In this document: positions 28,640 to 28,960 of the stretch, piece after piece | How the letters are laid out: each line of letters starts with the position of its first letter | Position numbering within the stretch: position 1 is the first letter of the stretch | Assembly: GCF_988243305.1 (NCBI RefSeq) | Contig: NZ_OZ547136.1 | Strand: one strand, 5' to 3' | Length of the DNA stretch: 64,000 bases | Program-made: the position numbers and the translations under genes | Notes under the pieces: generated by a model | Database searches by the model: none | Told to the model about the DNA's origin: nothing | What the model saw: the letters and a program-made list of their open reading frames with translations, nothing else

Positions 28640-28960
28640 TGTGTTCGTTGCCGTTTTTTGCCTGATGCGACGCTGGCGCGTCTTATCAGGCCTACAAGAC
28701 ACGAGCACAGAACCGTAGGCCGGATAAGGCGTTTTACGCCGCATCCGGCATTCAGTGCCTGATGCGACGCTGGCGCGTCTTATCAGGCCTACAAGTCCCA
28801 AGCACAGAACCGTAGGCCGGATAAGGCGTTTACGCCGCATCCGGCATTCAGTGCCTGATGCGACGCTGACGCGTCTTATCAGGCCTACAGGTCCCGAGCA
28901 CAGAACCGTAGGATGGATAAGGCGTTTTACGCTGCACCCGGCAACCGTTGTCGGAACCGA
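28640..28960. repeat. tandem REP/BIME array (three ~98-bp units) between wzxC and wcaK
   Basis: three direct repeats of gcctgatgcgacgctggcgcgtcttatcaggcctacaag...ccgtaggccggataaggcgtt..gccgcatccggca, each unit an imperfect palindrome. Confidence 0.9.

Follow-up and report, generated by a model that had tools for sequence, protein, structure and literature searches.

A strain-variable array of bacterial interspersed mosaic elements (BIME-2) between wzxC and wcaK in the colanic acid operon of Escherichia coli

The analysis presented here concerns a stretch of 64,000 nucleotides from contig NZ_OZ547136.1 of NCBI RefSeq assembly GCF_988243305.1 (the window) and, within it, a repeat array in the colanic acid (wca) operon between the genes wzxC and wcaK. 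Over this region, the window was 99.9% identical to the O125-type strain E. coli AH25. The gap between the wzxC stop (28971) and the wcaK start (28598), both on the minus strand, spanned 28599 to 28970 (372 bp). Tandem Repeats Finder (TRF) reported a single array at 28659 to 28943 (period, 96; 2.9 copies; 93% matches; score, 500), a repeat search returned three copies at spacings of 97 and 96 bp, and dissection of the sequence resolved three head-to-tail units of 96 to 97 bp each across 28659 to 28947, so that the whole array lay outside the genes. Each unit consisted of a forward Z2-type repetitive extragenic palindromic (REP) sequence and an inverted Y-type REP, with linkers of 19 nt (tail to tail) and 5 to 7 nt (head to head). 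As read in the unit, the inverted Y-type REP (GTAGGCCGGATAAGGCGTTTTACGCCGCATCCGGC) occurred at 28715, 28812, and 28908. The original prediction, made from the sequence without database searches, had described three tandem BIME units of about 98 bp, each an imperfect palindrome of the REP type, in a 370-bp gap inside the colanic acid operon. REP dissection and annotation bore out the array, its REP character, its three copies, and its location between wzxC and wcaK; the period was shorter than supposed, the gap measured 372 bp, and each unit proved to be a pair of inverted REPs rather than one palindrome.

BIME-2 elements are tandem pairs of Y and Z2 REPs with short linkers and a copy number that varies among strains, and BIME-1 elements are single-copy pairs of Y and Z1 REPs with a long linker (PMC3333891). 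All six REPs in the gap matched either Z2 or Y, and each of the two consensus sequences was 1 mismatch from the Z2 and Y copies of REP325, the model BIME-2 in the yjdM-yjdN gap of E. coli K-12. With Y and Z2 types in alternation, short linkers, tandem copies, an extragenic position, RNA hairpins, and a variable number of units, the element is a three-unit allele of a known, strain-variable, noncoding BIME-2 array. It resembles BIME-1 elements (RIB-RIP; Y plus Z1 with a long L linker carrying an IHF site) in having REPs in inverted pairs but differs from them in its Z2 REPs, short linkers, and tandem units. The orthologous element in K-12 is REP144 (2,118,467 to 2,118,652), catalogued at the tandem gene pair wzxC-wcaK (Harris et al. 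2026, Table S16). Locus, orientation, Y/Z2 units, flanks, and an outer palindrome are all shared between REP144 of strain MG1655 and the array in the window, but K-12 has 2 units in a 275-bp gap where the window has 3 units in 372 bp, and the wzxC-proximal Y copy, decayed in the window, is intact in K-12. Insertions and deletions of REPs in the wcaK-wzxC gap were described by Iguchi et al. in 2011, as was an abrupt shift in sequence similarity there, marking a recombination junction (PMC3158064). Because REP144 is catalogued and these REP indels were published, the array and its variability are already known.

REP325 is the closest model for comparison of structure and activity. Both arrays alternate Y and Z2 REPs that agree within 1 mismatch, are tandem, lie between two co-oriented genes, and match the same Rfam family. 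REP325 differs in having 6 units of 100 bp, as opposed to 3 units of 96 to 97 bp, and in its orientation to transcription, which is opposite: the order in its mRNA is inverted Y, 13 nt, canonical Z2, and 17 nt, whereas in that of the wca array it is canonical Y, 19 nt, inverted Z2, and 5 to 7 nt. The tail-to-tail linker of REP325 is C rich (9C:1G), with a C/G ratio of 1.3 to 1.6 for that array, whereas the single-stranded linkers of the wca array are G/U rich and its C/G ratio is 0.8 to 1.1. Attenuator and stabilizer activity has been measured for REP325.

The region from 28580 to 28990 in the mRNA sense (411 nt) folded at -196.7 kcal/mol, compared to -138.9 ± 6.5 kcal/mol in shuffled sequences (z = -8.97), and 0.00 matches to the REP consensus pattern were expected in shuffles; for both reasons, the occurrence of the array is far beyond chance. 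RNA folding of the unit, which had been suggested as a check, gave z scores of -4.76 for an intact Z2-type REP, -4.98 for an intact Y-type REP, and -5.96 for a full unit. One unit folded at -53.5 kcal/mol as a single long Y:Z2 hairpin, with two separate REP hairpins (-20.5 and -21.3 kcal/mol) as the alternative fold. An outer palindrome encloses the array in its loop. Where no unit is present, the two arms of this palindrome pair on their own as a perfect 13-bp hairpin (-21.9 kcal/mol; z = -4.38) that abuts the wzxC stop codon. The array is also flanked by an imperfect direct repeat of 6 nt, (A/G)CAACG, of which the empty allele has a single copy. Between the array and wcaK lies a unique spacer of 60 nt, which holds the 3' arm of the outer palindrome, is C rich and G poor in the mRNA (C/G, 1.6 to 2.1, versus 0.8 to 1.1 in the array), and was kept in every BIME-bearing or empty allele.

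A scan of both strands from 28300 to 29300 found neither a sigma-70-like promoter nor a terminator made of a hairpin and a U tract, and the last hairpin in the mRNA is followed by AAAAAA rather than by a U tract. Both an intrinsic terminator and a sigma-70 promoter within the gap were rejected on these results. Liang, Rudd and Deutscher are said to have found in 2015 that translation stalls when a REP lies within 15 nt of a stop codon. Stalling of this kind is inapplicable here, as the first REP past the wzxC stop is the decayed third Y copy, which begins 28 nt downstream. The coordinates of the array, its parts, and related features are collected in Table 1.

Table 1. Positions of the array, its component repeats, neighboring genes, open reading frames, and JUMPstart RNAs in the window
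Feature	Position	Strand	Remarks
BIME-2 array, three tandem units	28659..28947	-	Cotranscribed with wca operon; TRF, spacing, unit dissection
Array unit 1	28659-28755		Unit dissection
Array unit 2	28756-28851		Unit dissection
Array unit 3	28852-28947		Unit dissection
Z2-type REP copy 1, GCCTGATGCGACGCTGGCGCGTCTTATCAGGCCTAC	28660..28695	+	Exact match to array consensus; canonical on +, inverted in mRNA
Y-type REP copy 1, mRNA sense GCCGGATGCGGCGTAAAACGCCTTATCCGGCCTAC	28715..28749	-	1 mismatch from REP325 Y copies
Z2-type REP copy 2	28757..28792	+	RNA hairpin -20.5 kcal/mol, z -4.76
Y-type REP copy 2	28812..28845	-	RNA hairpin -21.3 kcal/mol, z -4.98
Z2-type REP copy 3	28853..28888	+	1 mismatch
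Y-type REP copy 3, decayed	28908..28942	-	4 mismatches; hairpin -8.6 kcal/mol, z -0.14
Outer palindrome, 5' arm, mRNA GUUGCUGUUUUCG	28958..28970	-	Adjoins wzxC stop codon; pairs with 3' arm in minimum-free-energy fold
Outer palindrome, 3' arm, mRNA CGAACACAACAAAC	28634..28647	-	Pairs with 5' arm in minimum-free-energy fold
Unique 60-nt spacer, array to wcaK	28599..28658	-	Ends in wcaK ribosome-binding site GAGGAAAAA-AUG
Spurious 124-aa open reading frame	28595..28969	-	Repeat translation; no Pfam match, unannotated, not conserved across alleles
Spurious 76-aa open reading frame	28755..28985	+	Repeat translation; no Pfam match, unannotated, not conserved across alleles
wzxC, colanic acid flippase, upstream of array	28971..30449	-	Open reading frame and annotation of AH25 by the NCBI Prokaryotic Genome Annotation Pipeline (PGAP)
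wcaK, pyruvyl transferase, downstream of array	27318..28598	-	Open reading frame and PGAP annotation of AH25
wcaJ	30451-31845	-	
wcaL	26101-27321	-	
wcaM	24696-26090	-	
JUMPstart RNA with ops element GGCGGTAGCGTG, upstream of wza	47898..47936	-	Rfam RF01707, 57.3 bits versus gathering score of 35
Second JUMPstart RNA with ops GGCGGTAGCGTG, upstream of O125 O-antigen cluster	22123-22161	-	

Comparison of unit number at this junction across E. coli genomes, as the original prediction had proposed, was carried out on 5,426 complete genomes, with only the two coding flanks as queries and with the gap length taken from the span of the joined match. The junction was present in approximately 4,690 of the 5,426 genomes, and two evenly spaced samples of 59 were drawn from these (n = 118). 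The sampled genomes carried between 0 and 6 units: 0 units in 12 genomes (gap of 70 to 72 bp), 1 unit in 23 (170 to 179 bp), 2 units in 35 (274 to 275 bp), 3 units in 8 (357 to 372 bp), 4 units in 9 (468 bp), 5 units in 15 (563 to 566 bp), and 6 units in 8 (660 to 663 bp). Two further genomes had an internal deletion leaving a partial array (145 bp), and six had an unrelated spacer of the E. coli B type (161 bp). The three-unit allele of the window is therefore a minority type (about 7% of the sample), with 0 units in about 10% and the 161-bp spacer in about 5%. Inspection of the sequence of one example from each of the other unit classes confirmed 0, 1, 2, 4, 5, and 6 units, and in every BIME-bearing example the length differed by whole Z2-plus-Y units with the orientation unchanged. 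Unit number was fixed within clones, with 2 units in all sampled K-12 genomes, 1 unit in O157:H7, and the 161-bp spacer in E. coli B. Given this constancy within clones, the locus is unlike a fast-switching one. Changes in unit number most likely arose through unequal recombination or slippage between units.

Two observations were made on genomes at the margins of this survey. In E. coli B strains C2566 and REL606, the 161-bp spacer is not a BIME, contains a GC-rich CCCCTCGCCCCC/GGGGAGAGGGTTAGGGTGAGGGGG palindrome, and has a wcaK ribosome-binding context (GAGGTCATA) like that of other genera and unlike the usual GAGGAAAAA of E. coli. Approximately 730 to 740 of the 5,426 complete genomes (about 14%) gave no megablast match to the 5' end of wcaK or the 3' end of wzxC and appear either to lack this stretch of the cluster or to carry a divergent version; an example of a divergent match in this set was a "MOP flippase" that was 88.6% identical. 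Group 1 capsule loci may conceivably have taken its place.

The same junction was examined in other Enterobacteriaceae, using 80 loci from different species obtained in one WcaK scan. The wzxC-wcaK gap had a median length of 29.5 bp; it was ≤40 bp in 49 of 78 species, 41 to 100 bp in 12, and >100 bp in 17, and in most other genera it was a gap of 14 to 40 bp with no structured element. Since the junction is tight in most species, its ancestral state is a tight junction without a structured element. Some of the long gaps contained REPs (a single Z2 REP in E. whittamii and a REP pair in Citrobacter amalonaticus), and GC-rich CCCTCTCCC/GGGAGAGGG/GGGTGAGGG palindromes were found in Pseudenterobacter, Pluralibacter, Lelliottia, Kosakonia, Phytobacter, and one Enterobacter. 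This type of GC-rich palindrome is also present in the E. coli B spacer. Palindromes of the form CCCTCTCCC...GGGAGAGGG...GGGTGAGGG, putatively boxC-like, share the junction with the wca array but belong to an unrelated sequence family and are not REPs. Repeats of the REP or GC-rich palindromic type thus fill the wzxC-wcaK junction independently in about one-third of species. A gap of >40 bp was present at wzxC-wcaK in 28 of 77 species, compared with 5 of 76 at wcaJ-wzxC, 8 of 74 at wcaL-wcaM, and none of 80 at wcaK-wcaL. These distributions suggest that the wzxC-wcaK junction is either permissive or favored for the insertion of repeats.

The original prediction further held that the array might stabilize upstream mRNA segments, attenuate readthrough, and set the expression ratio between proximal and distal wca genes, with a step in RNA-seq coverage across the array as the proposed check. 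Treatment of MG1655 (2 units) with colicin M gave log2 fold changes of 7.23 for wcaD, 5.92 for wcaI, 5.10 for cpsB, 5.15 for cpsG, 4.82 for wcaJ, 4.45 for wzxC, 4.45 for wcaK, 3.63 for wcaL, and 2.71 for wcaM (PMC3599342), forming a smooth gradient along the operon with no step at the array. Because wcaK is coinduced with wzxC, transcription reads through the array, which is cotranscribed between two operon genes on the same strand in a gap with no promoter-like or terminator-like site. In uninduced MG1655, DESeq2 base means were 33.4 for wcaI, 48.0 for cpsB, 37.5 for wcaJ, and 36.2 for wzxC and were 90.9 for wcaK, 161.5 for wcaL, and 144.3 for wcaM (Harris et al. 2026). The last three genes were thus at 2.5 to 4 times the level of wcaI through wzxC, a step up exactly at the REP144 junction, in counts that are low and for which strand handling is unstated. 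The K-12 region of this rise is 2,114,502 to 2,120,158. No promoter-like site was found in 28300 to 29300 to account for the basal rise from wzxC to wcaK. The published K-12 data therefore contained no downward step at the two-unit array, the fold induction being equal on both sides and the base means stepping upward in uninduced cells, and they did not support the proposal that the array sets the ratio of proximal to distal expression (equal log2 values for wzxC and wcaK on induction; base means of 36 versus 91).

Stabilization and attenuation are known behaviors of some REP and BIME elements, and to that extent the proposal stood; at this locus, they were unsupported by the K-12 data. The REPs of malE-malF and hisJ-hisQ reportedly stabilize mRNA, and the BIMEs of Espeli et al. 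in 2001 are said to attenuate transcription, activities said to have been shown by deletion or reporter assays. Like the wca array, these elements are intercistronic REP hairpins within one transcript; the wca array differs from them in that its K-12 data show no downward step. JUMPstart RNAs with ops elements are linked in the literature to RfaH antitermination, and the ops pattern was found twice in the window, where 0.13 occurrences were expected by chance. RfaH displaces NusG. Rho termination associated with REPs is said to lean on NusG (introduction of Harris et al.), and the sole Rho-binding fragment recorded at REP144 is antisense (Harris et al. 2026). REP325 is reported to be a partly Rho-dependent attenuator as well as an upstream stabilizer (bioRxiv 10.64898/2026.03.23.713779). 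Its deletion raised expression of the downstream gene yjdN about 8- to 10-fold and lowered that of the upstream gene yjdM, and Rho dependence was seen only with the full 12-hairpin array and not with 2 to 4 hairpins (Harris et al. 2026).

Taken with the survey of strains and genera, these data make it likely that the element, a known, noncoding BIME-2 array, is tolerated repeat DNA, with an effect on wca expression that would be at most modest and dependent on context. The array sits in the only roomy junction among the distal colanic acid genes, and in wca mRNA it folds either as six REP hairpins or as three long Y:Z2 hairpins. The most plausible effect at the RNA level would be a barrier to 3'-to-5' exonucleases that shields wzxC-proximal decay intermediates. 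By analogy, little attenuation of transcription would be expected, because the sense RNA is without C-rich single-stranded linkers and because JUMPstart/ops should load RfaH, which would oppose termination that depends on NusG and Rho. As DNA, the array is a candidate gyrase site, like other BIME-2 arrays. All of these functional steps are drawn by analogy. A functional reading is plausible from the precedent of REP325, although unsupported by the available K-12 data, and a required or strong role is argued against by the tight junction in most genera, the range of 0 to 6 units among strains, the lack of rut-like C-rich linkers, and the presence of JUMPstart/ops.

Several points weigh against regarding the array as tolerated DNA of little effect. 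The expression data all come from K-12 with 2 units, with no three-unit allele or isogenic series among them, and the K-12 figures consist of fold changes from microarrays and base means from low counts, which could mask an effect as large as about 2-fold. Across the genome, gene pairs in tandem that are separated by REPs have a raised ratio of upstream to downstream expression (median log ratio, 0.96 versus -0.09). Palindromic repeats have repeatedly colonized the junction in other genera, which could mean selection over tolerance. The RfaH dependence of the wca operon is taken solely from the literature.

The first alternative is that the array is a selected regulatory dial that stabilizes the mRNA from wza to wzxC and attenuates transcription into wcaKLM, with unit number setting the ratio. 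This appears unlikely, although several lines of evidence point toward it. REP325, another BIME-2, does lower yjdN and stabilize yjdM, but it is transcribed in the opposite orientation, has C-rich linkers that the wca array is without, and shows Rho dependence only at a number of hairpins well beyond 2 to 4. The hairpins of the wca sense RNA are very stable, and raised upstream-to-downstream ratios are found at REP-separated gene pairs across the genome; K-12, however, showed no step on induction and a step up when uninduced, and the operon carries JUMPstart/ops. Differences in copy number among strains, combined with constancy within clones such as K-12 (2 units) and O157:H7 (1 unit), would suit a dial, as would the recurrent colonization of the junction across genera, whereas the 0-unit allele in about 10% of the sample and the tight junction in most genera speak against one.

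A second alternative, distinctly unlikely on present evidence, places the role of the array at the DNA level, with the Y REPs acting as strong gyrase sites that would relieve positive supercoiling in a heavily transcribed operon of >20 kb and perhaps with the array serving as a recombination hot spot at O-antigen exchange. Gyrase cleavage sites are over-represented in BIME-2, mainly at Y REPs and independently of transcription, but just a subset of BIME-2 arrays is cleaved (PMC6379681). The abrupt change of similarity in the wcaK-wzxC gap and the coincidence of REP indels with junction points (PMC3158064) are consistent with recombination there, whereas alleles with 0 units or with a non-REP spacer are common. 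It is also rather doubtful that the wzxC-wcaK junction is a selected "punctuation" site, beyond mere tolerance, at which repeats of unrelated families arrive independently.

If the array or the sequence on its 3' side allowed wcaKLM to be expressed separately, whether from a weak internal promoter or by means of hairpins at the 5' end of a processed wcaKLM transcript that stabilize it, this would explain the increase in uninduced base means at the junction, from 33 to 48 (wcaI, cpsB, wcaJ, and wzxC) to 91 to 162 (wcaK, wcaL, and wcaM). We regard this explanation as improbable, since those counts are low and strand handling in the counting is unstated, the scan of 28300 to 29300 gave no sigma-70-like site on either strand, wcaK is coinduced with wzxC, and neither a wcaK promoter nor a wcaKLM transcription unit came up in the literature covered (Creative Commons-licensed PMC papers and bioRxiv).

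That the array encodes small nucleoid-associated RNAs of the naRNA4 type, acting with HU, is very improbable from the sequence matches. Two matches to Rfam naRNA4 (RF02564), a family built on REP325, were found on the plus strand with scores of 81.9 and 78.0 bits, above the gathering score of 59.5, but that strand is antisense to the operon; on the transcribed, operon-sense strand, the scores were 54.7 and 53.6 bits, below the gathering score. A naRNA4 gene was rejected because the above-threshold match was antisense. Furthermore, the plus strand had no promoter-like site in 28300 to 29300, the family model in effect fits any Y-Z2 pair, and REP325/naRNA4 had no measurable effect on nucleoid compaction (Harris et al. 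2026). The matches at the array are best read as generic Y-Z2 matches on the strand antisense to the operon and not as a small-RNA gene.

A repetitive protein encoded by one or both of the open frames in the gap (124 and 76 codons) can be given almost no credence, because neither frame matched Pfam, PGAP annotated no coding sequence in the wzxC-wcaK gap in any of 10 annotated genome records, and the frames in other strains lengthen, split, or vanish with unit number and with the 96/97-bp phase and are both missing from the 0-unit allele. The earlier judgment that these frames are artefacts of translating a repeat, and not genes, was upheld on the same evidence, and they should stay unannotated.

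Other repeats and structured RNAs were observed elsewhere in the window. A second BIME-2-like array lies in the same operon, in the cpsB-cpsG gap (33361 to 33520), with two units (each a degenerate Y plus a Z2, about 88 bp) that are oriented to transcription like those between wzxC and wcaK and with a naRNA4 match on the plus strand (33411 to 33481; 72.7 bits). The Rfam "algC RNA" motif (RF02929) was found on the minus strand at 33275 to 33324, directly upstream of the phosphomannomutase gene cpsG (77.3 bits, versus a gathering score of 33.8). Isolated single REPs on the plus strand comprised one of Y type in the wcaA-wzc gap (43908 to 43941) and one of Z2 type outside the wca cluster (50196 to 50232). 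A Sib RNA (RF00113), the antitoxin RNA of the Ibs/Sib type I toxin-antitoxin pair, was matched on the plus strand at 63708 to 63856 (145.9 bits).

As a textbook BIME-2 that is annotated in K-12 and whose variability was published in 2011, the array is in itself of low importance. That repeats have colonized the wzxC-wcaK junction repeatedly in different genera is of modest evolutionary interest and may merit a short comparative note. The genes wcaKLM act in pyruvylation and late assembly. If structure at the junction does tune their expression against that of the upstream genes, the number of units would act as an inherited dial for the composition of colanic acid. The locus offers a clean natural series of 0 to 6 units, together with an unrelated spacer, that would be convenient for testing the effect of BIME length in an RfaH-protected operon.

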